Source of the DNA: an uncultured Rhodothermaceae bacterium
GTDB taxonomy: Bacteria; Bacteroidota; Rhodothermia; Rhodothermales; DASSAV01
Length of the DNA stretch: 42,213 bases
Direction: 5' to 3'
NCBI GenBank assembly: GCA_965363675.1
Contig: CBDTTW010000003.1
Coordinates: 1-42,213 of the forward strand
The notes under the pieces were generated by a model. That model was not told the DNA's origin. It made no database searches and saw nothing but the letters and a program-made list of their open reading frames with translations. Below are positions 3,176 through 22,401 of this stretch, piece by piece; within the stretch, counting starts at the first letter, position 1; the number at the start of each line of letters is the position of its first letter. The position numbers were made by a program, and so were the translations under genes.

Positions 3176-4384
3176 CTACACGAAGAACAGAATCATGAAC
3201 AGGATCACGCTCAGGGCCAGACCCGTCATGAACACGGTGTACGAGATCCAGAGCAGTCGGTACTTCTTCGAGAGGACCTGCCCGAGCGAGTAGATGTCGC
3301 TGATCATGTTGTCGTAGAGGCGGTCCCAGTCCAGCATCAGCTCTTTCATGCCGACCGAGAAGTCGGCGGGATCCATGTTGACGAAGTTGCCGAAGAAGAG
3401 GATGTTGGATCTGTTTTGGCGCACGTCTTCCAGGGTGAAGACCTTGTTGGTCACCTTGGGGCGGGCGCTCAGGATGGCGTAGACGATGGCGACGAGGGCC
3501 GTGATGAGCAGCGTCGCCGAGGGCACCATCAGCCAGGGGTTCGTCTGGAGGCGCGACGAGACGAACGAGATGATGATCGACATCAGGATCGCGTTGACGC
3601 TGATCATGATGTTGGCCTTGCTGTCGGCCATGGAACTGAGGCTGACGTGGTTGCGGTAGGTGCTGCGGAACATCGTCTCGACGCCGCGCGAAGGGGCCTC
3701 GCGCAGCACCGGCTCCTCGGCGGGCGGGCCGGGGGCGGCGGCGGCTTGCTCGGCCGCGAGCGTAGCGGCGAGGCGGCGCTGGATGAGGCGCAGGTTTTTG
3801 AGGCGGCGGCCGCCGTACTTCTCGGCGGCGTAGGCCGTCAGAAACGGCGAGCGGTTGAGGAAGTCGAGTTGCAGTTCGGTCCACCCCTGGTCGCTGAAGG
3901 TGCGCCCGAGGTACGTTTCCCACTCCCGGCGCAGGCGCTCCGAGCGCTCGAAGAAGTTCTTCTTGCCGGTGTGGACGAGGTCGGCGTCGTGGAGGACTTC
4001 TTCGGCGGCGTCCTGGGGGGCATGCCCAGAGCGGGTGGCGCGGATGAGGGCCGCGACCGCGTGAATCTGCGGCTCGGGCAGCCCGCGCGAGTGCAGGTAT
4101 GCGTTGGCGATGCGCACCCCGGCTTCCTCGTGGCCGTCGTAGGTCTCCGTGAAGCCGGCGTCATGGAACCACGCGGCCAGCTCGATGAGCGGCAGCTTGC
4201 CCTTGGGCAGCGGCGTCTTCTTGCCGATGCGCACGGCCGCGTCCGCGACCTCCACGGTGTGCTCGTAGGTGTGGTAGAGGATGTCCGGGGGGAGCTTCTC
4301 TTTAAAAAGCGTGTATACGTACGCCGACGCTTCGGGCAGGAGCAGCTCGGGGGTGGGAGGCGTTTCCGTAAGTGCTAAAGCCAT
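3176..4384 (-). CDS. HD-domain phosphohydrolase fused to a Pycsar-type transmembrane effector domain (DUF5706/PycTM-like)
   Basis: N-terminal YHTYEHT...WFHDAG...H...HDAD HD motif. C-terminal ADSKANIMISVNAIL + 2 TM + ILFFGNF + LSKKYRLL + TM, typical of DUF5706/Pycsar effector family proteins. Confidence 0.88.
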   Translation of the reverse strand: MALALTETPPTPELLLPEASAYVYTLFKEKLPPDILYHTYEHTVEVADAAVRIGKKTPLPKGKLPLIELAAWFHDAGFTETYDGHEEAGVRIANAYLHSRGLPEPQIHAVAALIRATRSGHAPQDAAEEVLHDADLVHTGKKNFFERSERLRREWETYLGRTFSDQGWTELQLDFLNRSPFLTAYAAEKYGGRRLKNLRLIQRRLAATLAAEQAAAAPGPPAEEPVLREAPSRGVETMFRSTYRNHVSLSSMADSKANIMISVNAILMSIIISFVSSRLQTNPWLMVPSATLLITALVAIVYAILSARPKVTNKVFTLEDVRQNRSNILFFGNFVNMDPADFSVGMKELMLDWDRLYDNMISDIYSLGQVLSKKYRLLWISYTVFMTGLALSVILFMILFFV

Positions 4385-4462
4385 AGCTGCATGGGCCGTG
4401 AAGGCCGGCGGCGGAAAAGCTCCGCCGGACCGGGGGCGCTTGCGAAGAATAGAGTTTCCGGA

Positions 4463-5380
4463 ATGAGGTTCTCCTGTTTAGCTCCATATTTGCGGTTTTG
4501 TTGCAGCGTCCTGCTGTTTTTAGGGTGGGGCTGCCGGGGCGAGGCCCCGGCGCTGCCTGAAGCGGGCGCCGCCGGGGCGCTCGGCTACGATTTCGGGCGC
4601 CCCGACCGCGTGCTGACGCTGCCGGCGGCGCTCGCGGAAATCTCGGGCGTGGCCTATCTCTCGGCCGACCGGCTCGTGGCCGTCCAGGACGAGGCGGGCA
4701 TCGGCTATGTGGTCAACGCGCAGACGGGCGCCGTGGAGGCGCAGGTGGTCCTCGACGGCGCGGGCGACTTCGAGGACGTGGCGCGCGTGGGCGAGGCGCT
4801 CTACCTGCTCCGCAGCGACGGCCTGCTCGTGGGCAAGTCGCCGGCCGGCGGCGCGGCCGTGCGCCTCCGCACCGGCCTGCGCGACTGCGACGCCGAGGGG
4901 CTCGCGTTTGACCCGCGCGGCCGCCGCTTCGAGATCATTTGTAAGAACAATATCCAAATCTCCGGGAAACGAAGCCGGGTCGCGTATGTGTATTACCCCA
5001 TGGGCGGCGGGCGGCTGGACACGTTGTTCGTGCTGACCGAGGAAGCCATCGACGAGACGCTGGTGCAGGAGGGCAAACGGCGGTGGCAGGAAAGGCTGGA
5101 GCGTCTGCTGGAAGACCCGGTGGAGGGGCGCGGCATTGCGCCTTCGGCCCTGGCGACGCACCCGGCCACGGGGGCGCGCTTCGTGCTCTCCTCCGAGGCC
5201 AAAGCCCTGCTGCGGCTCAGCCCGGCCGGGGCGCTCGAAGTAGTCGAGGCGCTGCCGCCGGTGGTGTTTCCGCAGCCGGAGGGCATGGCCTTCACGCCGG
5301 AAGGGGACCTGTGGATCGCCAACGAAGGCGACGCCGCCGGCCCCCCGACGCTGCTGCTGTTCCGCCGCCGCGCCGAATGA
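4463..5380 (+). CDS. SdiA-regulated (YjiK-like) beta-propeller protein, probable lipoprotein
   Basis: Repeated blade motifs EISGV, QDE, DFEDV, DAEGL, PSAL, QPEGM, ANEG. The hydrophobic signal ends LFLGWG-C if translation starts at ATG 4463. Confidence 0.8.
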   Translation: MRFSCLAPYLRFCCSVLLFLGWGCRGEAPALPEAGAAGALGYDFGRPDRVLTLPAALAEISGVAYLSADRLVAVQDEAGIGYVVNAQTGAVEAQVVLDGAGDFEDVARVGEALYLLRSDGLLVGKSPAGGAAVRLRTGLRDCDAEGLAFDPRGRRFEIICKNNIQISGKRSRVAYVYYPMGGGRLDTLFVLTEEAIDETLVQEGKRRWQERLERLLEDPVEGRGIAPSALATHPATGARFVLSSEAKALLRLSPAGALEVVEALPPVVFPQPEGMAFTPEGDLWIANEGDAAGPPTLLLFRRRAE

Positions 5381-5437
5381 GCCGCAGAACAACCGTCGGA
5401 AACGTTTAGCAGCAGGACCTTTTTGATCACTACCCGT

Positions 5438-8400
5438 ATGCAGATTCATCAGAGCCGGGCGACGGCAGCGAGCCTCCGGGCGGCGACCCTGTGCCTGACG
5501 GCCGCTGTAGCGCTCGCCGTCGGGGGGTGCGCCTCGGGGCGGCAGTTTTCCATTCCCGAACTCCTCGGGGCCGACGCTCCCCGCCCGGCCGACTCGACGC
5601 TCGCCTATACCGTCGTGCTGGTCGGCGACGCCGGGGGCACGCCGCACCACAGCAGCGAGCCTGCCCTGACGATGCTTCAGCATCACCTCGGCCGTCTGGG
5701 CGAGCACAGCGCCGTCGTGTTCCTCGGCGACAACATCTACCCGAGCGGACTGGTGGCGCGCACGCACCCGGGGCGCGAGGAGGCCGAGTACCGCATCACG
5801 GCCCAACTCGACGCCGTCAAGGCGTTCAAGGGGCGCATCTTCTTCGTGCCGGGCAACCACGACTGGGGGGGCGCCGGCATGGGCGGCAGCCGCGAAACGC
5901 TGCGCCGCCAGGAGCTGTTCGTCGAGGAGTACCTCGGGCGCGGCGACACGTTCACGCCCGACCGCGGCTTCCCCGGCCCCGTCGAGATTCCGCTTTCCGA
6001 CTCGCTGATGCTTCTGGCGCTCGATACGCAGTGGTGGTTCGAGGACGTGAAGCCCTACGGCGACACCGGCCAGTACGAGATCGAGCAGGAGGGCGAGTTC
6101 ATCCTGGAGCTGCACAACGCGCTGGCGCGCCACCCGGACAAGCAGATCCTGGTGGTGGGTCACCACCCGATGTACTCCAACGGCGAGCACGGCGGGCGCT
6201 TCAAGTCGCGGCGCAGACCGGCGCCGCTGGCGCGGCAGTACCTGGGCACGCCGCAGGACTTCTCCAGTCTCAAGTACCGGCAGCTCCGCCAGAAGCTGCG
6301 CGCCGTGTTCCAGCAGCATCCGGGCCTGGTCTACGCCGCCGGGCACGAGCACAACCTGCAATACTTCCGCGAGGGCGGCCAGCACTACATCGTCAGCGGC
6401 TCGGGCAGCAAGCAGGGCTACGTGAGCCAGGGCGGCGGCGCGGCCTTCGCCTCGATGGATTCGGGCTTCGCCACGCTGCGCTACTACGCCGACGGCGCCA
6501 TTCTGCTGACGTACTACGGCGTCGAGGAGGGCAACCCGGAGGGGCGCATCCTCTACGAAACGCGCCTGCGCGAGGCCCGGCCGGCGCTCGAAGCCGCCGC
6601 GCCGGCCGGCGCTCCCCTGGGCGAGGCCCGGCCCGAGCAGAAGCCTCGGGCCAAGGCGGCCCCCGAGGCCAAGGCAGCCCCCGAGGCGCCGCGCGGCCTG
6701 CGCGCCGCCGCCGACGCCGGAGAGCCTGCCGTGGACGAGGGCGCGCCCCGCAAAAACCTCGCGCGCGAGGTCAACCTTACCGCCAACGCGCGCGTGGGCT
6801 CGGACATTCCGCCCTACGAGTTCGCCAGCACAGGCACGCGCACCGTCGCGGCGGCCGAGCGCTACCGGGTCGGGCCGCTGAAGTCGTTCTTTCTGGGCAG
6901 CCGCTACCGCAAAATCTGGGCGACGCCCATCGAAGCGCCCATCATCGACCTCTCGCGGACGGCGGGCGGCCTGACGCCCGTGCGCCTCGGCGGCGGCCTT
7001 CAGACGAAGTCGCTGCGCCTGCGCGGCGCCGACGGCGACGAATATGTGCTCCGCTCGCTCGACAAGGACCCCACGCAGACCGTCCCCGAGTACCTGCGCC
7101 TGACGATTGCCCAAGACGTGGTGCGCGACCAGATTTCGGCTATCCACCCCTACGGCGCGCTCGTCGTGCCGGGGCTGGCCGAGGCGGTGGGCGTGTTCCA
7201 CACCTCCCCCAAGGTCGTCTATGTCCCCGCCGATGCGCGCCTGGGCCGCTACCGCGACGACTTCGGCGGCAGCGTGGCCCTCTTCGAGAGCCGCCCCGAC
7301 GAGGACCAGTCCGACGAGGCGCGCTTCGGCTTTTCCGAGAACATCATCGGCAGCACCAAGCTGCTCGATGAGCTGGCCGAGGACAATGACCGCCGGGTGG
7401 ACGCCCACGCCTTCGCCCGCGCCCGCCTGCTCGACATGCTCATCGGCGACTGGGACCGCCACATCGACCAGTGGCGCTGGGCCGAGTACGACCGCACGCC
7501 CGGCAAGCTCTACCGCCCCGTCCCGCGCGACCGCGACTTCGCTTTCTTCCGGTTCAACGGCCTGCTCGCCACGCTGGCGCGCATGAGCGGCGTGACGGCC
7601 TACAAACGCTTCACCAACTACGACGACGACATCAACAACCTGTACGGGCTCAATTTCAACGGCTCGCCGCTCGACCGCCGCTTCCTCTCGGAGCTTACGC
7701 GCGAGGACTGGACTGCCCTGGCCGACAGCATGCGCGCCGAGCTGACCGACGAGGTGATCGACGAGGCGTTCCGGGCCTGGCCCGAGGCGGTCTACCAGGC
7801 GCAAGGCGCCGAGTTTGCCGACCACATGAAGTCTCGCCGCGACGGGCTGACCCGCGTCGCCGAGAAGTACTACGAGATGCTTGCCGGCGTCGTGGACATC
7901 GTCGGGAGCAACAAGCACGAGCGCTTCGAGGTCGAGCGCCTGAACAACCGCGAGACGGAGGTGACGGTCTACAAGACCAAGAAGGAGGGCGACGTTACCG
8001 GCGAGCTGTACCGCCGCCGCTTCCGCCACGACGAGACGCGCGAGCTGCGGCTCTACGGGCTCGGCGGCTCCGACCAGTTTGTCGTGCGCGGCGAGGCCAC
8101 CCGGGGGCTGCTCGTGCGCGCCGTCGGCGGCGACGGCGAGGATGTGCTGGTGGACAGCTCGCGCGTCTTCGGCCCTGCGCACCGGACCGTGTTCTACGAC
8201 ACCCGCCGGGGCAACACCGTCTACAAGGGCGGCGAGGCCCGCCTGCATCTCTCCGACGAGCCGGCCGTGAACCGTTACGACATGGGGCGCCTCGACCGCA
8301 CCCTCACGACGCCGCTGATCGTGGCGGGGCGCACCTCCGACCAGGGGTTCATCGTCGGCGGCGGCTTCCGGGTCGTCAAGCCCGGTTTCCGCAAAACGCC

Positions 8401-9331
8401 GTACCTCGCCCGGCATGAAGTCACGGCGAGCTATGCCGAGTACGCCAACGGCATCAACGCGGCCTACTTCGGGCACTTCCCCGAGGTAAAGGGCGCCTGG
8501 AGCGGTACGATGGACGCCCGCATCACGGCCGAGCGCTACTACCGGTTCTTCTACGGCCTGGGCAACGAAACCCGCAAGTCCGACCGGAGCCTCTATCAGG
8601 CCGCCCTCGGGCAGTTCACGGCGCAGCCGACCCTCTACAAGCGGGTGCTGCCGTTCTCGGACTTCGGCTTCGGGCCGCGCTTCGAGTTTACCTCGGTGGA
8701 CACGCGCCGCGACGCCGAGGGCCGACCCTACCCGACGACGTTTGCGCCGAAGGACTTCGCCGACCGGTACTACGTTGGGGCGGCGGCTACGTTCAACGTG
8801 AGCGGCCTCGATACGCTCGCCGGCACGCGCTCGGGCGCCCGGTGGCGCAACGAGGCCAGCGTGAACGTGGGCGTCAAAGGCGCCGACGGGGCGTACGTGC
8901 GCCTGGCCTCCGACCTGAGCTACTTCTACACGTACTTCATCCCCTCGCCGCTCACGCTGGCGCTTCGGCTCGGCGGCGCGCGCAACATCGGCGACTTCAG
9001 CTTCTTCCAGGCCAACACGCTCGGCGGCGAGTCCAACCTGCGCGGCTACGGCCGCACGCGCTTCGCCGGGCGCGCCGCGACGTACTCGAACGTAGAGCTG
9101 CGCGCCAAGCTGACCGAGTTCAACGCCTATCTGACCAAGGGCGAGATGGGCGTGTTCAGCTTTTTCGACAACGGGCGCGTGTGGGCCGCCGGCGACAAGT
9201 CCGGCAAGTGGCACCAGGGGTACGGCGTGGGCCTATGGGTGACGCCGTTCAACCAGTTCGCCGTTACGGCGTCGGTGGGGTTCTCCGAAGAGGATACCTT
9301 GCTCGACGTAGGCATCGGCTTCCAGTTCTAG
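5438..9331 (+). CDS. Lipoprotein metallophosphoesterase - kinase-like - Omp85 (BamA/TamA-family) beta-barrel fusion
   Basis: Lipobox VGG-C. Calcineurin-like motifs GDAG, GDNIY, GNHDW, HH, GHEH. Central GGG...YVLRS...GDWDRHIDQW...PRDRD. Omp85 LRGY and FFDNG motifs and C-terminal beta-signal GIGFQF. Confidence 0.9.
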   Translation: MQIHQSRATAASLRAATLCLTAAVALAVGGCASGRQFSIPELLGADAPRPADSTLAYTVVLVGDAGGTPHHSSEPALTMLQHHLGRLGEHSAVVFLGDNIYPSGLVARTHPGREEAEYRITAQLDAVKAFKGRIFFVPGNHDWGGAGMGGSRETLRRQELFVEEYLGRGDTFTPDRGFPGPVEIPLSDSLMLLALDTQWWFEDVKPYGDTGQYEIEQEGEFILELHNALARHPDKQILVVGHHPMYSNGEHGGRFKSRRRPAPLARQYLGTPQDFSSLKYRQLRQKLRAVFQQHPGLVYAAGHEHNLQYFREGGQHYIVSGSGSKQGYVSQGGGAAFASMDSGFATLRYYADGAILLTYYGVEEGNPEGRILYETRLREARPALEAAAPAGAPLGEARPEQKPRAKAAPEAKAAPEAPRGLRAAADAGEPAVDEGAPRKNLAREVNLTANARVGSDIPPYEFASTGTRTVAAAERYRVGPLKSFFLGSRYRKIWATPIEAPIIDLSRTAGGLTPVRLGGGLQTKSLRLRGADGDEYVLRSLDKDPTQTVPEYLRLTIAQDVVRDQISAIHPYGALVVPGLAEAVGVFHTSPKVVYVPADARLGRYRDDFGGSVALFESRPDEDQSDEARFGFSENIIGSTKLLDELAEDNDRRVDAHAFARARLLDMLIGDWDRHIDQWRWAEYDRTPGKLYRPVPRDRDFAFFRFNGLLATLARMSGVTAYKRFTNYDDDINNLYGLNFNGSPLDRRFLSELTREDWTALADSMRAELTDEVIDEAFRAWPEAVYQAQGAEFADHMKSRRDGLTRVAEKYYEMLAGVVDIVGSNKHERFEVERLNNRETEVTVYKTKKEGDVTGELYRRRFRHDETRELRLYGLGGSDQFVVRGEATRGLLVRAVGGDGEDVLVDSSRVFGPAHRTVFYDTRRGNTVYKGGEARLHLSDEPAVNRYDMGRLDRTLTTPLIVAGRTSDQGFIVGGGFRVVKPGFRKTPYLARHEVTASYAEYANGINAAYFGHFPEVKGAWSGTMDARITAERYYRFFYGLGNETRKSDRSLYQAALGQFTAQPTLYKRVLPFSDFGFGPRFEFTSVDTRRDAEGRPYPTTFAPKDFADRYYVGAAATFNVSGLDTLAGTRSGARWRNEASVNVGVKGADGAYVRLASDLSYFYTYFIPSPLTLALRLGGARNIGDFSFFQANTLGGESNLRGYGRTRFAGRAATYSNVELRAKLTEFNAYLTKGEMGVFSFFDNGRVWAAGDKSGKWHQGYGVGLWVTPFNQFAVTASVGFSEEDTLLDVGIGFQF
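6650..6685 (+). repeat. 18-bp in-frame tandem duplication (AKAAPE x2) in a Pro/Ala linker
   Basis: gccaaggcggcccccgag followed by gccaaggcagcccccgag, between the phosphoesterase and kinase-like domains. Confidence 0.8.
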
Positions 9332-9443
9332 CCCGGCCGGCGCTGGTAACGATCCGGCCTGCCCCATAACAACGGGCGGCTTCGGCGCGTTTACCCCTCA
9401 GCGCCCGGTATGCCCGGCGCTGCCTTGCGCTAACCCTGACGCG

Positions 9444-11783
9444 ATGATAAACGCAACGTTGAGCATAGAGCCGGCGCTGGAAGCCTGGCGGGCCTTGGCC
9501 CGGCAAGAGGAGTGGGCGTGGGTGGCCCCGTGGCTGGAGGCCACCGTCGAGGCGCACCCCTGGCTGAGCGGCGCGGCGGAACCGGCCGAGGCGCGCCGCC
9601 AGAAAGCGGTGCTTCAGCGGCTGCTGAGCCTGCCGCTGGCGCAGGGGCTGCTCGACAGCACGCCGGGCATCGCCCTGGCGCCGGGCAGCCGCGAGGCCGT
9701 GTACGTTTCGGCGGCGCTCGAACGCTACCTCACGCCCGAGGAGGCGGCCTCCGGCGTGCTCTCCGGGGAGGCGTGGTCCGAGCTGGACGAGGCGCGCCGG
9801 TACGCGCTCGTGTGCCGCCTTGCCGAGGCGGCCTATGGCCTGGAAGGCTGCCCGGCGCTGCGCCCCATCGTCACGCTGAAAGATCCGGAGACCGGCCTTA
9901 ACCATTACTTTGCGGCCGAGCTGGATTTTCGCCTCGTGCGGTTTGCGCCGCAGGGCGCGGCGCCCGCGCTCGACGCGGCGCAGGCCGAGGCGCTGCAAGC
10001 GGCGCTGCAAAACGGCGCCGCCGCTCCGCCGCACCTGGCGCTCGAAGGGTTCCGCGCCGAGGGCATCGAGCTGCTGCGATTCGTGGACATCACCGAGGAG
10101 CATGCGCTTTCGCTGCTCAAGGGCGACCTCCTCGAAGGCGAGCGCGGCGCGCTGGCCCAACTCGTCGGCATCTTCGAGGGGCGCGTTCGAGATTACCTCG
10201 GCAAGCCGGAGGTGTTTTTGGGGTTGGCCGCCACCCAGGGCGATACGCTGCGCCCGCTGCGCACGGCCGCCGGCGCCGCCGATCCGTTCCGCCCCGAGCG
10301 CCTCGACCCGGCGCGCCTCGGCGGCACGTTCATCGGGCGCGCCCTCTCCGAAGGCAAGCCCCAACTCGTCTGCGATCTGGCCGCCGAAGGCTCCGGCGAT
10401 CTCGAACGCGAGCTGGCCGGGGCCGGGGTGCGCGCGGCCATCGTGGCGCCGCTCAACCACCGCAGCAGCCTGACGGGTCTGCTCTACCTGTGGTCGCCCC
10501 GGCCCAACGCCCTGGCCCTGCGCGACCTGGCGCTGCTGGACCGCGTGCTGCCGCTCTGCGCCGCCGCCGTCAACCGCAGCAAGGAGGAACTGAACTACCG
10601 CGTCCAGTCGGTCATCCTCAGCGAGTACACCGCCATACACCCGAGCGTCGAGTGGCGCTTCCGCAAAGCCGCGCTCAACTACATCCGCCGCCACGACCGC
10701 GGCCTGCGCGCCGAGGCCGAGCCGATCGTGTTCGACGAGGTGTACCCGCTCTACGGCGTGGCCGACATCCGCGCCTCGTCCGCGCACCGCAACGAAGCCG
10801 TCAAGCACGACTTGCACGAGCACCTTACCGAGGTCGAGGACATTCTGCAACTGGCGCGCACGGCCAAGCCGCTGCCCATCCTGAACTACCTCGCCGCGCA
10901 GGCCGAGGCCAACCGCCGGATGCTCGAAGACGGCCTTTCCTCGGACGAGGAGGCCGGCATCAAGGACTTCATCAGCCGCCACATCGAGCCGCTGCTCGAC
11001 CACCTGACGACCTTCGGCCCCGCCGTGGCCGAACGCGTCGAGGCGTACCGCGCCGACGCCCAGGTCGAGTCGGGGCGCCTCTACCGGCAGTGCCGCGCCT
11101 TCGACCAGAGCGTTTCGCTGCTCAACCAGACCATCTCGGGCTACCTCGACGCCGAGGAAGCGCGCGCCCAGGCCATGTTCCCGCACTACTTCGAGAAGCG
11201 CCAGACCGACGGCGTCGAGTTCTCGATCTACGTCGGGGCCTCGCTCGTGGAGGACATCCCGTTCAACCCGCTTTACGTGCGCAACCTGCGGCTCTGGCAG
11301 CTCATGGTGATGTGCGGCATCGCCCGGCTTGCCGCGCCGCTCAAAGAGCGCATGGAAATGCCCCTCGAAACGACCCAGCTCGTGATCGCGCACAGCGCGC
11401 CGCTCTCGATCCGCTTCCAGCTTTCGGAGACGCGCTTCGACGTGGACGGCACGCACCACATCCGCTACGAAATCATGAAGCGCCGCCTCGAAAAGGCGCA
11501 GCTCAAGGGGGCCGACGAGCGCCTGACGCAGCCCGGCAAAATCGCCATCGTCTACTCGCAGTTCCGCGAGGCATGGGAGTACGAGGAGTACATCCGCTTC
11601 TTGCAGTCGGCGGGGTATCTGGCGCCGGAAATCGAGGAGGTGGAAATCAGCGATTTACAAGGCATCAGCGGCCTGAAGGCGCTCCGGGTGAACGTGCTCC
11701 TGGAGTCCGGCGCGGGCGGCGACGGCCTTTCCTCGGAGGTCATCGAACGCGCGGTGGCCGCCATGCCGCTCGAACCATTCTAA
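9444..11783 (+). CDS. GAF-domain protein with a C-terminal divergent class III nucleotide-cyclase-like domain
   Basis: GAF signature RAAIVAPL...LTGLLYL. The C-terminal half has ADIRASS, LLNQTISGYLD, EKRQTDG, FDVDG...RLEK and PGKIAIV in the order of class III cyclase motifs. The GAF call is firm; the cyclase call is inference. Confidence 0.8.
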   Translation: MINATLSIEPALEAWRALARQEEWAWVAPWLEATVEAHPWLSGAAEPAEARRQKAVLQRLLSLPLAQGLLDSTPGIALAPGSREAVYVSAALERYLTPEEAASGVLSGEAWSELDEARRYALVCRLAEAAYGLEGCPALRPIVTLKDPETGLNHYFAAELDFRLVRFAPQGAAPALDAAQAEALQAALQNGAAAPPHLALEGFRAEGIELLRFVDITEEHALSLLKGDLLEGERGALAQLVGIFEGRVRDYLGKPEVFLGLAATQGDTLRPLRTAAGAADPFRPERLDPARLGGTFIGRALSEGKPQLVCDLAAEGSGDLERELAGAGVRAAIVAPLNHRSSLTGLLYLWSPRPNALALRDLALLDRVLPLCAAAVNRSKEELNYRVQSVILSEYTAIHPSVEWRFRKAALNYIRRHDRGLRAEAEPIVFDEVYPLYGVADIRASSAHRNEAVKHDLHEHLTEVEDILQLARTAKPLPILNYLAAQAEANRRMLEDGLSSDEEAGIKDFISRHIEPLLDHLTTFGPAVAERVEAYRADAQVESGRLYRQCRAFDQSVSLLNQTISGYLDAEEARAQAMFPHYFEKRQTDGVEFSIYVGASLVEDIPFNPLYVRNLRLWQLMVMCGIARLAAPLKERMEMPLETTQLVIAHSAPLSIRFQLSETRFDVDGTHHIRYEIMKRRLEKAQLKGADERLTQPGKIAIVYSQFREAWEYEEYIRFLQSAGYLAPEIEEVEISDLQGISGLKALRVNVLLESGAGGDGLSSEVIERAVAAMPLEPF

Positions 11784-11790
11784 ACCCCCC

Positions 11791-12594
11791 ATGAACCACC
11801 CCGCGCTGCTGTGCTGCGCCTGCCTGCTCTTCGCCCTGGCCGGGTGCCGCGCCGATTTCGTCGAGCCGCCGCTCGACGTGGAGTGGGATTTGCTGCAAGG
11901 CACGGCCTGGAGCGTGCGGGCAAGCAGCAACCCGGCCATCGTCCAGGCGGGCGACACGCATGTGTTTACGCGCGAGGGCGACTTTATCTCGTACGTGCGC
12001 GGCCGCGACGCCTTTTGCGGCCGGTGGAACCAGACCCGCAGGGGGGTGCGCGTGCTGGCCGATCTGGCCAGTCGCGACATCAACTTCGAGGTGCTGATGC
12101 TCACCGCCGACTCGCTGCGCGTGCGCCTGACGAACGCCGCCGGCGCGGCTGATCTGCTCTACACCCCCGGCGAGGCGGTGGGCGCGCAGTTCTCCCGCGA
12201 GGCGTCGAACCAGCCCTCCGGCTATACCATCACGAGCCGCGCCGGCGCCATCGGCGTCGCCGACGAGAACGACTGGCGCACCACGCCGGACGCGACGTGC
12301 AAAATCGCCTTCTCGCCCGTGTTTCCGAACCCTGCCGAGCAGTCGGATTCACTCTCGCTCCGGATGACGGTTTTCGAGACGGTGAACTACCGCGACGGGC
12401 TCGTGCTGGCCGCGCTCGGCCCCAGCTCGGGCTTTCAGCAGCTCGACGGCGAGGCGACGGTTTCGCGGCCGGGCACGTACACGTTCCGCTTCAGCGCGGC
12501 GCAGATCCGGGCCGTGGGCTTACGGCGGCTTTACGTCTTCGACCGCGAAGGCAACGTCGTCAGCTACGGCGACGTGCAGATTCGCTCGCTCTGA
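11791..12594 (+). CDS. Hypothetical lipoprotein
   Basis: Lipobox ALAG-C. The N-domain is lipocalin-like (LQGTAW) and the C-domain beta-rich (VFPNP). It starts 7 bp after the GAF gene. Confidence 0.7.
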   Translation: MNHPALLCCACLLFALAGCRADFVEPPLDVEWDLLQGTAWSVRASSNPAIVQAGDTHVFTREGDFISYVRGRDAFCGRWNQTRRGVRVLADLASRDINFEVLMLTADSLRVRLTNAAGAADLLYTPGEAVGAQFSREASNQPSGYTITSRAGAIGVADENDWRTTPDATCKIAFSPVFPNPAEQSDSLSLRMTVFETVNYRDGLVLAALGPSSGFQQLDGEATVSRPGTYTFRFSAAQIRAVGLRRLYVFDREGNVVSYGDVQIRSL

Positions 12595-20153: not shown

Positions 20154-22082
20154 TCACTGCACCAGGCGCCATAGCTCGCGGTACTGGGCATTCTGCGGCG
20201 CCAGCTCCAACAGGCGCCTGGCATGGGGGCGAGCCTCCTGTTTGCGCCCGGTGTTCAGGTACAGCGAGGCGAGGTTCGCCAGCGTCTGCTCCTCGTCCGG
20301 GTTGAGGCCGAGGGCCTGCCGGAAGTCCATGCGCGCCGCGTCGAGGTCGCCGCTGAGCGCCCGGAGGTAGCCGCGGTCGTTGTAGGCCAGCCAGAACTTG
20401 GGGTTGAGCGCCAGGATTTCGTTTTGCAAGGCCAGCGCGCGCTCGGGCTCGCGGCGGCCGGCGTAGGCGTAGGCCAGGCGGCTCTTGAAGCGCAAGTGCT
20501 GCGGCGCCCCGGCGGCGGCGGCCTCCAGCCACGGAACGGCCCCGGCGGCGTCGCCCTGCTTCAGGAACGCCTCGCCGATGCGATAGCGCGTCCAGGGCTG
20601 AAGGCGTTCCGGCGACGCCGTGGCGGCGTACGACGTAATGGCTCGGTAGTCGCCCTGCAAAAACCACAGGCGCACCCACGAGTCGGGAAGCGAGGCCCGG
20701 GAGGCTTCCTGGCGCCGGGCGCGTTCGAGGTAGACGGCCGCCGAGTCGAGGTAGTAGGCTTTGGGCTTGAACTGCTCGTAGTAGGTCAGGTAGCCGTCGG
20801 CCATGTCCTTGGCGGTAGGCGCCTTGTTGATGAGGCTTGCCATGCCGTAGAACTTCTGAAGCGCCGGCGTGGCCTCGGGCGGCGCCTGGCGGTCGGGCTT
20901 GCGGATGTAGTGGTCGGTGATCTGGACGTGGGGGATGTCCGACGAGCCCGAGGTGGGCATGTGGCAGGCAAAACAGTTGTCGCCGTTGCGGGCGCGCACG
21001 GCCGGCTCCTCGGCGCACACATCGCCGCGCGGAGGCGTGTGGCAGGTGCGGCACGGTTGGTTGTAGGCGTCCGCGCCGCGCTGCTTGACGCTTACGTGCG
21101 GGTCGTGGCAGGTGATGCACGTCATGGCTCCGGCGGCGCCCTCCCTGGCCCACGTCGCTTTGAAGCAGGGGCTCATCTTGAGGCGGTCCGGGTGCGAGGC
21201 CATGATGAACTGGCGCACGCTGTCGGCGTCGCGGGGCCAGTACACGTTCGTGAAAGCGTCCAGATTGCCGCCCGGCCGGAAGTCCAGGAAGGTCTTGTCG
21301 TCGGCGAGCACGGCCGCGCCCTGCATATGGCAGCGCTGGCAGATGTCGAACTGCCGCTCGACGGGCAGCCGCCGGGGGTTGACGATGGAGTAGTCCGGAG
21401 CCTGCGACGTATCGACGATCTCGCCGGCGCCTTTCTCGCGCACGTGCAGCGCGCCCGGCCCGTGGCAGCTCTCGCAGTCGATGCCGTTAGGGATGTGCGT
21501 AAACCGGTTCTCCGAGCCGGCCACATAGGTAGGGCGCGCGTTGTGGCATGTCATGCACTCCAGTTGGATCGCGCGGTCGAAGCGGGTGTTGTTGCCGGCG
21601 TGAAAGCCGGGCGGCAAGTCCCACCGCTGCTTCTGCACGTACCACGTCATCGGGATCTGGTAGACGTAGCCGTTTACGTCGTACATGTGGGAGTTGGTAT
21701 GTTGCCCCGAGCCGACGATGTAGTCGATGCGCTCGGTGCGCGCGTGCACGGTGTCGCGGCCGCTGAGGCGGTATTCCTTGACGAACAGCGCCTCGCCCCG
21801 GCGGAACGGCTGGTAGTAGAGGTCCGAGGCGGCGTCGTAGACGGGCGCGGCGCCGTCCCACCGGGCGTCGCTGTTGGAGAACGTGGCGCGTTTGAACGAG
21901 CGGCCCATTTCGGACTGCACATAACTCGCGTACTTGTCCGGGTGGCACCCGCGGCACGCCTCCTTGCCCACGAACTCTACGCTCAGGTCCATGTTGCGGT
22001 AGCGGGGAGCCTCGGCGTCGGGCTGCGGCCGGTTGGTGCAGGCCGCCAGCAAGAGCAGCAAGACGAAAGGAAGACGCTTCAT
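20154..22082 (-). CDS. Multiheme cytochrome c lipoprotein with C-terminal TPR repeats
   Basis: Lipobox LLAA-C after ATG 22082. Seven CxxCH motifs (CRGCH, CMTCH, CESCH, CQRCH, CITCH, CRTCH, CFACH). TPR repeats (AYNDRGYL, LANLASLY). Confidence 0.9.
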   Translation of the reverse strand: MKRLPFVLLLLLAACTNRPQPDAEAPRYRNMDLSVEFVGKEACRGCHPDKYASYVQSEMGRSFKRATFSNSDARWDGAAPVYDAASDLYYQPFRRGEALFVKEYRLSGRDTVHARTERIDYIVGSGQHTNSHMYDVNGYVYQIPMTWYVQKQRWDLPPGFHAGNNTRFDRAIQLECMTCHNARPTYVAGSENRFTHIPNGIDCESCHGPGALHVREKGAGEIVDTSQAPDYSIVNPRRLPVERQFDICQRCHMQGAAVLADDKTFLDFRPGGNLDAFTNVYWPRDADSVRQFIMASHPDRLKMSPCFKATWAREGAAGAMTCITCHDPHVSVKQRGADAYNQPCRTCHTPPRGDVCAEEPAVRARNGDNCFACHMPTSGSSDIPHVQITDHYIRKPDRQAPPEATPALQKFYGMASLINKAPTAKDMADGYLTYYEQFKPKAYYLDSAAVYLERARRQEASRASLPDSWVRLWFLQGDYRAITSYAATASPERLQPWTRYRIGEAFLKQGDAAGAVPWLEAAAAGAPQHLRFKSRLAYAYAGRREPERALALQNEILALNPKFWLAYNDRGYLRALSGDLDAARMDFRQALGLNPDEEQTLANLASLYLNTGRKQEARPHARRLLELAPQNAQYRELWRLVQ

Positions 22083-22401
22083 CGGGCAAAGTCTATCGGC
22101 AGGCGCAGCAGCGCGCCGCGCAGCTAAAAATAACCACCGGCGCGGCCCTTCGGCGGCGCAAAAATGCGGCGCATCCTGGCTCCGGCGCCTCCGGGACGCC
22201 CGGCGGAAAATTTTTCCGCGTCCGCTGCGAAAAATGAAAGACGCCGCGTTCCCTTTTTCTAGCCGCGCGCCCACCGGCAGGAGCGCAGCGGCACGCTTCG
22301 GGCGTTTTGTTTGAAGTTTTGGAGAACGGATTGGAAGTTGCACCCCGCCGCCGATACCCCTGAAGCATCCCCCGACGCCTGAGCCCACTCTCTGCTGGAA
22401 C

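Follow-up and report, generated by a model that had tools for sequence, protein, structure and literature searches.

A predicted kinase-like fold on a metallophosphoesterase-bearing Omp85 protein from an uncultured Rhodothermaceae bacterium

What role might a kinase-like enzyme have in a part of the cell where bacteria are not known to have ATP? The question is raised by one gene in a 42,213-nucleotide stretch of DNA from an uncultured Rhodothermaceae bacterium (contig CBDTTW010000003.1 of assembly GCA_965363675.1; the whole stretch is referred to as the window). The gene lies at 5438..9331 on the forward strand and encodes P0001, an outer-membrane protein in which a lipobox, a metallophosphoesterase, an Ala/Pro-rich linker, a kinase fold, an all-beta domain and a 16-strand Omp85 barrel follow one another from the N- to the C-terminus. 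Omp85 proteins are known as insertases and translocases with POTRA domains; P0001 instead carries two enzyme-like domains on the Omp85 scaffold where POTRAs normally sit. On the evidence of its predicted structure, the central domain is a very divergent protein-kinase-like domain in the structural neighbourhood of HipA/CtkA, PI4KII and CotH. As to function, we tentatively favour, at somewhat below even probability, a phosphatase and a phosphotransferase that face the periplasm as a pair held at the outer membrane, of which we infer the activity, the donor, the substrate and the topology. The parts of P0001 are listed here with the evidence for each in brackets.

5438..9331, + strand: P0001, a 1297-residue outer-membrane multidomain protein (stop-free frame; architecture recurring in homologues)
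5438..5530, + strand: signal peptide ending in the lipobox LAVGG-C31, Cys codon 5528-5530 (read from the sequence)
5609..6562, + strand: purple-acid-phosphatase-type calcineurin-like metallophosphoesterase, residues ~58-375 (PF00149, metal-ligand motifs, PDB matches)
6569..6826, + strand: low-complexity linker rich in Ala, Pro, Glu and Arg, residues 378-463 (composition; position between PF00149 and the first ordered strand of model 1)
6827..7885, + strand: protein-kinase-like fold domain of ~350 residues without a Pfam family, residues 464-816 (AF2 model, Foldseek, VIA-align)
6986..7006, + strand: Gly-rich loop LGGGLQT, residues 517-523 (modelled between strands 1 and 2 of the N-lobe hairpin)
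7043..7066, + strand: YVLRS strand followed by LDK, with R539 and K543 (conservation; strand at model residues 81-86)
7445..7474, + strand: catalytic-loop-like GDWDRHIDQW, residues 670-679 (directly following a long helix, residues 656-669)
7523..7537, + strand: PRDRD, residues 696-700 (at the kinase DFG position, after two short strands)
7889..8254, + strand: all-beta domain with RTX-like GGxGxD turns, residues 818-939, in the place of a POTRA (models; RsaA match)
8303..9328, + strand: 16-strand Omp85-type beta-barrel, residues 956-1297 (model 2, Foldseek, motifs)

Fold and motifs of the central domain

The first-pass annotation of this DNA had proposed, from motifs, that the region between the phosphoesterase and the barrel resembles an atypical kinase, and the proposal passed a structural search. 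A fragment covering the central domain was aligned with 36 homologues (37 sequences, alignment A1) and modelled with AlphaFold (AF2), giving model 1 with a mean pLDDT of 93.5 and a pTM of 0.92. In a Foldseek search of the PDB the first 22 rows are all atypical kinases (CtkA at E 3.6e-6; HipA, CotH, PI4KII-alpha and HipT), and the probability is 1.00 for CtkA, HipA, CotH and PI4KII-alpha. VIA-align, a method independent of Foldseek, compared the model with 48,161 chains; models with no true match typically peak at Z 7-8, and here PI4KII-alpha reaches Z 14.7 (254 residues, root-mean-square deviation 4.3), CotH 14.3, CtkA 12.6, actin-fragmin kinase 11.8 and Fam20C 11.0, with HipA, HipT, PI4KIII and the PIKKs at about 10.5. 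The matches to the predicted fold thus fall in the PI4KII-alpha, CotH and HipA/CtkA classes which the annotation had named.

Sequence searches give a different picture. No Pfam kinase family matches the whole protein at E<=1, or the central-domain fragment and its 36 homologues at E<=10, and residues ~464-940 are covered by no Pfam, NCBIfam or PADLOC model. A phmmer search of the PDB with P0001 returned no kinase, and nor did a profile search of the PDB, which gave only chance matches to eS7 and HDAC6. HipA_C has 0 matches in the whole genome of P0001, and hhalign comparison of 13- and 378-sequence profiles with 5 and 7 HipA open reading frames (ORFs) of relatives gave probabilities of 0.27% and 0.4%; in these non-significant alignments the G-loop, catalytic loop and P..D block come in the same register as those of HipA, which is suggestive only. 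A search of the ESM Atlas with the homologue P0079 is likewise a lead only, the nearest clusters being unnamed and those of CotH and HipA appearing only at a score of 0.76. Since the hidden Markov models of HipA_C (PF07804), CotH (PF08757) and PI3_PI4_kinase (PF00454) are unmatched, the likeness is one of fold only and not of family membership. A domain of about 350 residues without a Pfam model merits a family of its own.

The motifs that first pointed to a kinase, LGGGLQT, YVLRS (nucleotides 7043-7057), GDWDRHIDQW and PRDRD, were all found at the positions reported for them. Their conservation was counted residue by residue over the 37 aligned close homologues of A1. In the Gly-rich loop G518 and Q522 are each kept in 36 sequences and G519 in 37. 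In the catalytic-loop-like segment D671 and R674 are kept in 37, D673 in 32, H675 in 35 and Q678 in 34, the other three having Asn, while in PRDRD all of D698, R699 and D700 are kept in 37/37. The residues invariant throughout the alignment are G519, R539, K543, D564, E617, R663, D666, D671, R674, D698, R699, D700 and D746.

In the model, the GGGxQT hairpin (residues 518-523) is followed by the EYVLRS strand and LDK, by helices of which the one after the R539/K543 strand carries D564, and by a strand ending at E617; next come the long helix with R663 and D666, the DWDRHxxQW loop, two short strands and PxDRD. By this order of secondary structure D673-x4-Q678 and D698/D700 sit at kinase-like places, and the predicted order of the motifs is that of the canonical kinase plan: G-loop, beta3, helix C, hinge, helix E, catalytic loop and DFG. 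The identity of the phosphate-binding basic residue is less clear. An Arg had been suggested at the position usually held by Lys, and R539 in YVLRS is indeed invariant (37/37), on or just past the third strand. The equivalence is unconfirmed, however: K543, four residues downstream, is equally invariant, and a replacement of the beta3 Lys by R539 is therefore unproven. The ATP-binding Lys of HipA did not fall on R539 in the non-significant hhalign alignment. Judged from the sequences, R539 and K543 are two candidates for the role.

A wider sample of 263 protein homologues was pooled from word-indexed and full-scan searches. A tolerant form of the loop pattern, in which D673 may also be Ser or Gly and H675 may be Arg or Ser, is present in 253 of them, PxDRD in 257 and the G-loop in 237, which argues that the motifs are not due to chance. 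The strict form, which requires both D673 and H675, is kept in 176/184 homologues with phosphoesterase, kinase fold and barrel and in 41/44 with kinase fold and barrel. It could still be supposed that the central region is not kinase-like at all, its DWDxH(H)G(Q) string being a resemblance to the active site of histone deacetylases. HDAC6 did match over the loop in the PDB profile search, at E values of 0.65-2.2, which are below any threshold and not significant. This explanation is scarcely credible, and the deacetylase reading is refuted, to the extent that predicted structure can do so, by a fold that is bilobal and kinase-like (Z up to 14.7) rather than that of an arginase or deacetylase.

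Flanking domains, anchoring and distribution

The reading frame of P0001 is continuous, as 5438-9328 translates to 1297 residues without a stop, followed by a stop codon at 9329-9331. The longest frame begins at a TTG at 5423, five codons 5' of 5438. The G+C content of the gene is about 0.70, similar to that of its flanks. The combination of phosphoesterase, kinase fold and barrel is repeated in 184/263 homologues, which shows that P0001 is a genuine gene rather than a fusion created by assembly. A scan of 4200-9700 for promoters and terminators gave nothing usable.

At the N-terminus, the lipid anchor reported by the first-pass annotation is borne out by the lipobox LAVGGC, residues 26-31 (nucleotides 5513-5530). 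Among 180 full-length homologues that start with Met, 173 have a hydrophobic N-terminus, some of the others having wrong or truncated starts, and 110 have a lipobox-like site by a loose regular expression. Signal peptides or lipoboxes are present in all three architecture classes, including stand-alone forms of the kinase-fold domain.

The next domain is matched by PF00149 over residues 58-305, at 36.9 bits against the Pfam cut-off of 21.5; its C-terminal limit was inferred from the start of the linker. Seven metal ligands are expected in five blocks of the pattern GDxG, GDxxY, GNH(D/E), xxxH and GHxH. All five blocks are found within nucleotides 5624-6352, as GDAG (residue 63), GDNIY (97), GNHD (139), GHHP (241) and GHEH (302), so that the calcineurin-like ligand set is complete, as had been proposed. 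The Gly of block I and the Tyr of block II (GDAG, GDNIY) form what we take to be the purple-acid-phosphatase pattern, and purple acid phosphatases are the only PDB sequence matches of P0001 (best E 6.5e-5, phmmer). On these sequence features the domain is of the binuclear purple-acid-phosphatase type, a predicted enzyme. The Pro/Ala linker that follows is apparent in the composition of residues 396-470, 75 residues with 18 Ala, 9 Pro, 8 Glu and 8 Arg.

C-terminal to the kinase fold, the structure was predicted in a second model (model 2: residues 455-1297 with 36 homologues of ~800-925 residues, most with a barrel, without the phosphoesterase; pLDDT 88.8, pTM 0.81). It contains the kinase fold, the all-beta domain and 16 long strands (residues 956-1293). 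The all-beta domain is matched best by part of the beta-roll of RsaA, an S-layer protein (Z 7.9 over 77 aligned residues, 21% identity). D879, G885 and D902 never vary and G897 and G898 hardly do, and the GGxGxD-like turns of residues 818-939 presumably represent the RTX consensus; as modelled, this region is a small Ca-type beta-roll. No Pfam POTRA family matches P0001, and in both models residues 818-939 are all-beta with no helix pair. Being made of strands only, the region is therefore no POTRA, and P0001 groups with the POTRA-less Omp85 proteins; the earlier statement that no POTRA is evident holds for the 120 residues before the barrel.

The barrel itself had been recognised from its LRGY, FFDNG and terminal Phe, which were located at residues 1201-1204 (nucleotides 9038-9049), at nucleotides 9161-9175 and in GIGFQF at nucleotides 9311-9328, and the 16 modelled strands agree with that assignment. 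Foldseek matches it best to BamA (E 7.3e-11), then to TamA and Sam50. The loop-6 motif (V/I/L)RG(Y/F) is found in 216 and a C-terminal aromatic residue in 230 of 233 barrel-bearing homologues. Profile matches to P0001 stay below their cut-offs, with NCBIfam Omp85_fam at 83.6 bits against 200 (residues 1146-1297, E 2e-23) and Pfam ShlB at 14.8 bits against 22.7; PF01103 is matched by 20/37 sequences of A1 (best E 7.1e-18), in which P0001 is entered as the central fragment only.

The side of the membrane on which the soluble domains lie bears directly on what they could do. One possibility is that the barrel exports the lipidated phosphatase and kinase fold to the cell surface in a type V-like manner, where they would scavenge phosphate or act on external substrates and where extracellular nucleotides are available. 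Secretion is the rule for purple acid phosphatases, RTX-like beta-rolls are a usual feature of secreted proteins, and surface lipoproteins are common in the phylum. For the 'Metallo' group of Omp85 proteins, which is discussed below, the same option is raised in the parts of Heinz & Lithgow 2014 (PMC4104836) covered here. However, the segment joining the beta-roll to strand 1 of the barrel is only ~16 residues in model 2, leaving no long segment to thread the pore. The export signal of Bacteroidota lipoproteins consists of acidic residues after the Cys; the residues after Cys31 (ASGRQF), as in the homologues inspected, are non-acidic and therefore unlike that signal. PlpD, the model case of such export, keeps its enzyme, a patatin domain, in the periplasm (Hanson et al. 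2024, PMC11116518, in the sections covered here). We consider the export of P0001 domains to the surface quite unlikely. Strand 1 of Omp85 barrels begins on the periplasmic side; together with the precedent of PlpD and the lack of acidic residues after the lipidated Cys, this argues by analogy for a periplasmic orientation, in keeping with the tethered pair that we favour. The N-terminal lipid and the barrel would then hold the soluble domains beneath the outer membrane at both ends.

Homologues of the central part are numerous. A query of residues 455-930 against 1.84 billion cluster representatives gave 3112 matches at E<=0.001 and 1455 at E<=1e-30, and a word-indexed search gave 2349 at E<=0.001 among 8000 scored candidates. 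In an even draw of genomes from the phylum, the kinase-fold part is matched in 81/201 genomes and 41/110 genera, and source names of homologues also include Gemmatimonadales, Longimicrobiaceae and Ignavibacteria. Isolates of Pontibacter and Hymenobacter are among the named sources. The open frames fall into three length classes (~1240, ~860-930 and ~500-590 residues). Of the 263 pooled homologues, 184 combine phosphoesterase, kinase fold and barrel, 44 combine kinase fold and barrel, and 11 consist of the kinase fold only, the others being partial; a survey of motifs by architecture added 110 stand-alone forms. Stand-alone forms of ~530-545 residues lie on long contigs of named isolates under the label 'hypothetical protein', and one, P0347, is publicly named 'HipA domain-containing protein'. 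No fused form longer than 2270 residues was scored, which is weak evidence. At one locus (L017, G155:C27:62479-66730) three stand-alone kinase-fold genes are adjacent, with frames of 531, 550 and 586 residues.

Two further loci concern the relation between the kinase fold and the phosphoesterase. In L024 the phosphoesterase is a separate ORF of 404 residues (8172-9386) which overlaps the start of an 889-residue kinase-fold and barrel gene (9371-12040), an arrangement due either to a frameshift or to a natural separation of the fused parts. The genome of P0001 has a second copy (L045, G000:C77:3293-5790) with kinase fold, beta-roll and barrel and 52% identity over the kinase-fold part; it has no phosphoesterase.

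The fusion of the two domains in 184/263 homologues and their adjacent ORFs in L024 link phosphatase and kinase fold. The same facts could be read in another way, in which the kinase fold is a substrate-presenting helper: it would bind a nucleotide or phosphorylated compound and hand it over to the metallophosphoesterase. The 5'-nucleotidase UshA, which has a metallophosphoesterase domain and a separate substrate-binding domain, offers a parallel. Against such a division of labour, the motifs are kept where the phosphoesterase is absent, that is, in the 44 homologues with kinase fold and barrel, the 11 stand-alone forms and the 110 counted in addition, and the kinase-fold domain therefore works without the phosphatase. 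The paralogue in the same genome points the same way. A helper role is thus improbable in our view, and the tethered phosphatase and phosphotransferase pair is retained in what follows.

Proposed function and gene neighbourhood

In the proposed mechanism the kinase fold would be a competent phosphotransferase or another nucleotide-dependent transferase, in which the Asp, Arg, His and Gln of the loop, the Asp residues of DRD and the Gly-rich loop would bind a metal-phosphate donor. Its substrate may belong to the envelope, as a lipid head group or as a protein on the inner side of the outer membrane, and the tethered acid-phosphatase domain would take off that phosphate or a related one. The barrel would serve mainly as anchor and platform. 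The likely partners of P0001, in a module that would span the envelope, are a YjiK-like propeller lipoprotein and an inner-membrane PycTM protein, which may or may not have a cytoplasmic HD domain, and the PycTM protein would be the most obvious candidate to deliver or gate the donor. The functional reading in the first-pass annotation, of opposing activities with an alternative phosphate donor or a relay coupled to transport, is speculation.

Several observations weigh against a phosphotransferase. The evidence for the kinase fold comes wholly from AlphaFold models, and no sequence method ties the central domain to any kinase family. Gln (34/37) replaces the metal-binding Asn of kinases at position 678. 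D673 is Ser in 37/110 stand-alone forms, mostly with Asn at 678. A distant barrel-fused clade, at 27-30% identity, lacks the G-loop, R539, K543 and DRD. The periplasm is not known to hold ATP; a search of the genome of P0001, which is 100% complete by marker genes, gave no match to the TLC/NTT ATP/ADP carrier (PF03219), a result that has no positive control since the controls were silent too.

The two exceptions to motif conservation are confined to particular lineages. The sequences with Ser at D673 (37/369) form one monophyletic stand-alone clade reading DWSRHxxNW as against DWDRHxxQW; in a FastTree phylogeny of 375 domains the change from Asp to Ser is a single one, and these forms are therefore one clade. 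The distant clade consists of seven loci (L038-L043 and L044, from genomes G101, G085, G189, G181, G053, G073 and G169). It also lacks H675 wherever the loop aligns and retains a fold-sized region and the barrel, so that the fold must also have a role free of catalysis. The expectation that DRH and DRD would be conserved among homologues therefore stands for the main family, and fails at D673 in the one clade and for the motifs as a whole in the other. In G169 a degenerate and a canonical gene adjoin, which is reminiscent of pseudokinase/kinase pairs.

These exceptions speak for an alternative in which the kinase fold is a pseudo-enzyme or scaffold, a binding platform for a ligand, lipid head group or partner protein that has replaced the POTRAs, with the phosphatase as the sole enzyme. 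The distant clade, which keeps fold and barrel but has lost every catalytic-type motif, the Ser at the Asp of DRH, the Gln in place of Asn and the ambiguous position of the Lys would all agree with it, as would the general expectation that the periplasm has no ATP and the absence of a carrier match in a search lacking a positive control. On the other side, some twelve charged residues never vary, and they stand exactly where a kinase uses them: in the G-loop, in the loop that follows the long helix and at the DFG position. Binding does not usually demand as much. Nor is the degenerate clade an argument against activity in the main clade, because families of pseudo-enzymes normally hold active members too. 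We regard a scaffold as possible but unlikely, and continue to prefer an active, tethered pair.

Were the kinase fold inactive, the family would represent a new kind of POTRA substitute. Were it active, phosphotransfer would be widespread in a supposedly ATP-free compartment, pointing to a new donor or supply route and to a modification of the envelope. The most far-reaching version of this idea, which we think rather improbable as a whole, is that many Bacteroidota, Rhodothermia and Gemmatimonadota run an active periplasmic cycle of kinase and purple-acid-type phosphatase on an Omp85 barrel, held at the inner face of the outer membrane and modifying an envelope lipid or protein, with a donor that the PycTM partner passes across the inner membrane or gates there. 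In such a cycle the PycTM partner would be paired with a class III nucleotide cyclase in some genomes, and the YjiK-like propeller would be an accessory lipoprotein, like BamB for BamA.

The neighbouring genes that bear on these partners are as follows.

4463..5380, + strand: YjiK/SdiA-regulated-type six-bladed beta-propeller, probably a lipoprotein (Pfam SdiA-regulated, Phytase-like)
3176..4384, - strand: HD phosphohydrolase fused to a PycTM-family membrane domain, divergently transcribed (Pfam HD, PycTM; PADLOC PycTM, 2TM effector)
L016:12116-13213, L018:3961-5064, L022:12380-13465 and L024:12072-13139: cyclase ORFs of related loci

Gene order was compared over 17 loci, namely the window and 16 of 99 kinase-fold matches with 20 kb around them, chosen for diversity and including paralogue and stand-alone loci. 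The propeller gene is immediately 5' on the same strand in 10/17, and its profile matches E. coli YjiK (3qqz) at E 2.1e-8. A membrane protein with HD and PycTM is found in 13/17; one large family of the same class has in this place a protein of ~190-200 residues with PycTM only and no HD. The paralogue L045 lies on a contig of 13.8 kb with neither a propeller nor a PycTM neighbour.

When the same 201 genomes were searched for the HD-PycTM protein, 97 matched. By hand comparison, a PycTM/HD homologue is present in 70/81 genomes with the kinase fold against 27/120 of the others, a descriptive count in which related genomes are not independent samples. Among the 70, it lies within 10 kb on the same contig in 52, at 10-25 kb in 7 and elsewhere or on another contig in 11. 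The literature on DUF5706, PycTM and PF18967, in the parts covered here, concerns defence systems. The HD-PycTM protein seems to be a conserved partner in the envelope and not an effector of phage defence.

A membrane class III nucleotide cyclase (PF00211, ~360 residues) adjoins the kinase-fold/Omp85 gene in 4/17 loci. It is directly downstream in three and, in L016, directly upstream of a second barrel gene. The window contains no class III cyclase, the only match in the genome being on contig C4. The presence of cyclase and PycTM in one cluster resembles a Pycsar-like pair of cyclase and effector.

Other genes of the window were noted in passing. Directly downstream of P0001, a 779-residue protein (9444-11783, +) has a central GAF as its sole recognised domain and homologues in 5/17 loci; it is followed by a family-less, lipoprotein-like ORF of 267 residues (11791-12594, +). 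An OmpR-type response regulator and a histidine kinase (491-2824, -) lie just beyond the HD-PycTM gene, and weak histidine-kinase matches also occur in three related loci. Further away, a 744-residue ORF (20154-22388, -) has multihaem cytochrome c motifs (paired CXXCH, cytochrome c7) and, at its C-terminus, TPR repeats.

Comparison with known systems

Among kinases, HipA, HipT and CtkA (PDB 3akk, 4pu5 and 7ab3) give the best Foldseek matches and VIA-align Z of 10.6-12.6, and share with P0001 a G-x-Q loop, a D-x-H-x-x-N/Q loop and a P-x-x-D block that are co-linear in the non-significant hhalign alignment. They differ in that P0001 has no HipA_C match (hhalign 0.4%), has Gln for Asn and is exported and fused to a barrel. 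HipA is a cytoplasmic toxin with an antitoxin, unlike P0001. PI4KII-alpha and the PI3/PI4-kinase core (PDB 4pla, 4hnd) give the top Z of 14.7 and have a DRH-type loop followed by an Asp at the DFG position, whereas P0001 has no PF00454 match and has DWDRHxxQ in its loop in place of DRHxxN. That PI4KII-alpha phosphorylates lipids while tethered to a membrane fits an enzyme pinned to a membrane; a lipid substrate for the kinase fold of P0001 would be pure conjecture. CotH (5jd9, 5jda; Z 14.3) and Fam20C (5yh0, 4kqa; Z 10.9-11.0) resemble P0001 in working outside the ordinary cytosol. CotH differs in family, the P0001 domain having no PF08757 match. CotH and Fam20C act where ATP is supplied, in the mother cell and the Golgi lumen respectively, whereas P0001 has no known route of ATP supply.

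Among Omp85 proteins, the closest described relatives are those of the 'Metallo' subfamily of Heinz & Lithgow 2014 (PMC4104836), which carry PF00149, termed there a metalloprotease domain. In the parts covered here, they share with P0001 a PF00149 domain N-terminal to a POTRA-less barrel and an occurrence in Bacteroidetes and relatives, and P0001 belongs to this group by architecture. The introduction of Hanson et al. 2024 (PMC11116518), as covered here, likewise counts Omp85 subfamilies with N-terminal 'metalloprotease', WD40-like and patatin-like domains as poorly characterised; both papers agree with the first-pass annotation, which had called metallophosphoesterase-bearing Omp85 proteins recognised yet uncharacterised. 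The subfamily of P0001 is thus in print but mis-described, and the 'metalloprotease' label needs correction. The intervening kinase fold of ~350 residues and the beta-roll set P0001 apart: the text of PMC4104836 covered here does not once contain the word 'kinase', and neither domain is therefore described in it. In the same text the 'Metallo' group is conserved at the genus level only, as against 81/201 genomes and 41/110 genera for the central domain of P0001. A literature search whose scope excluded subscription journals and supplements found no account of the kinase-fold domain. The subfamily is accordingly already known, and its kinase-fold domain is, within the literature searched, undescribed.

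PlpD and FplA (formerly 'type Vd') offer the nearest parallel in design. In the parts of the literature covered here, they too carry an enzyme domain ahead of an Omp85 barrel of 16 strands and reuse the Omp85 scaffold for a function besides protein insertion. PlpD combines a patatin lipase with one POTRA, whereas P0001 has a phosphatase-like domain, a kinase fold, a beta-roll and a lipid anchor; no patatin or POTRA domain was found in P0001, and the scaffold principle alone is common to both. PlpD showed that this scaffold can carry a periplasmic enzyme, and the family of P0001 would place there a kinase fold, usually together with a phosphatase.

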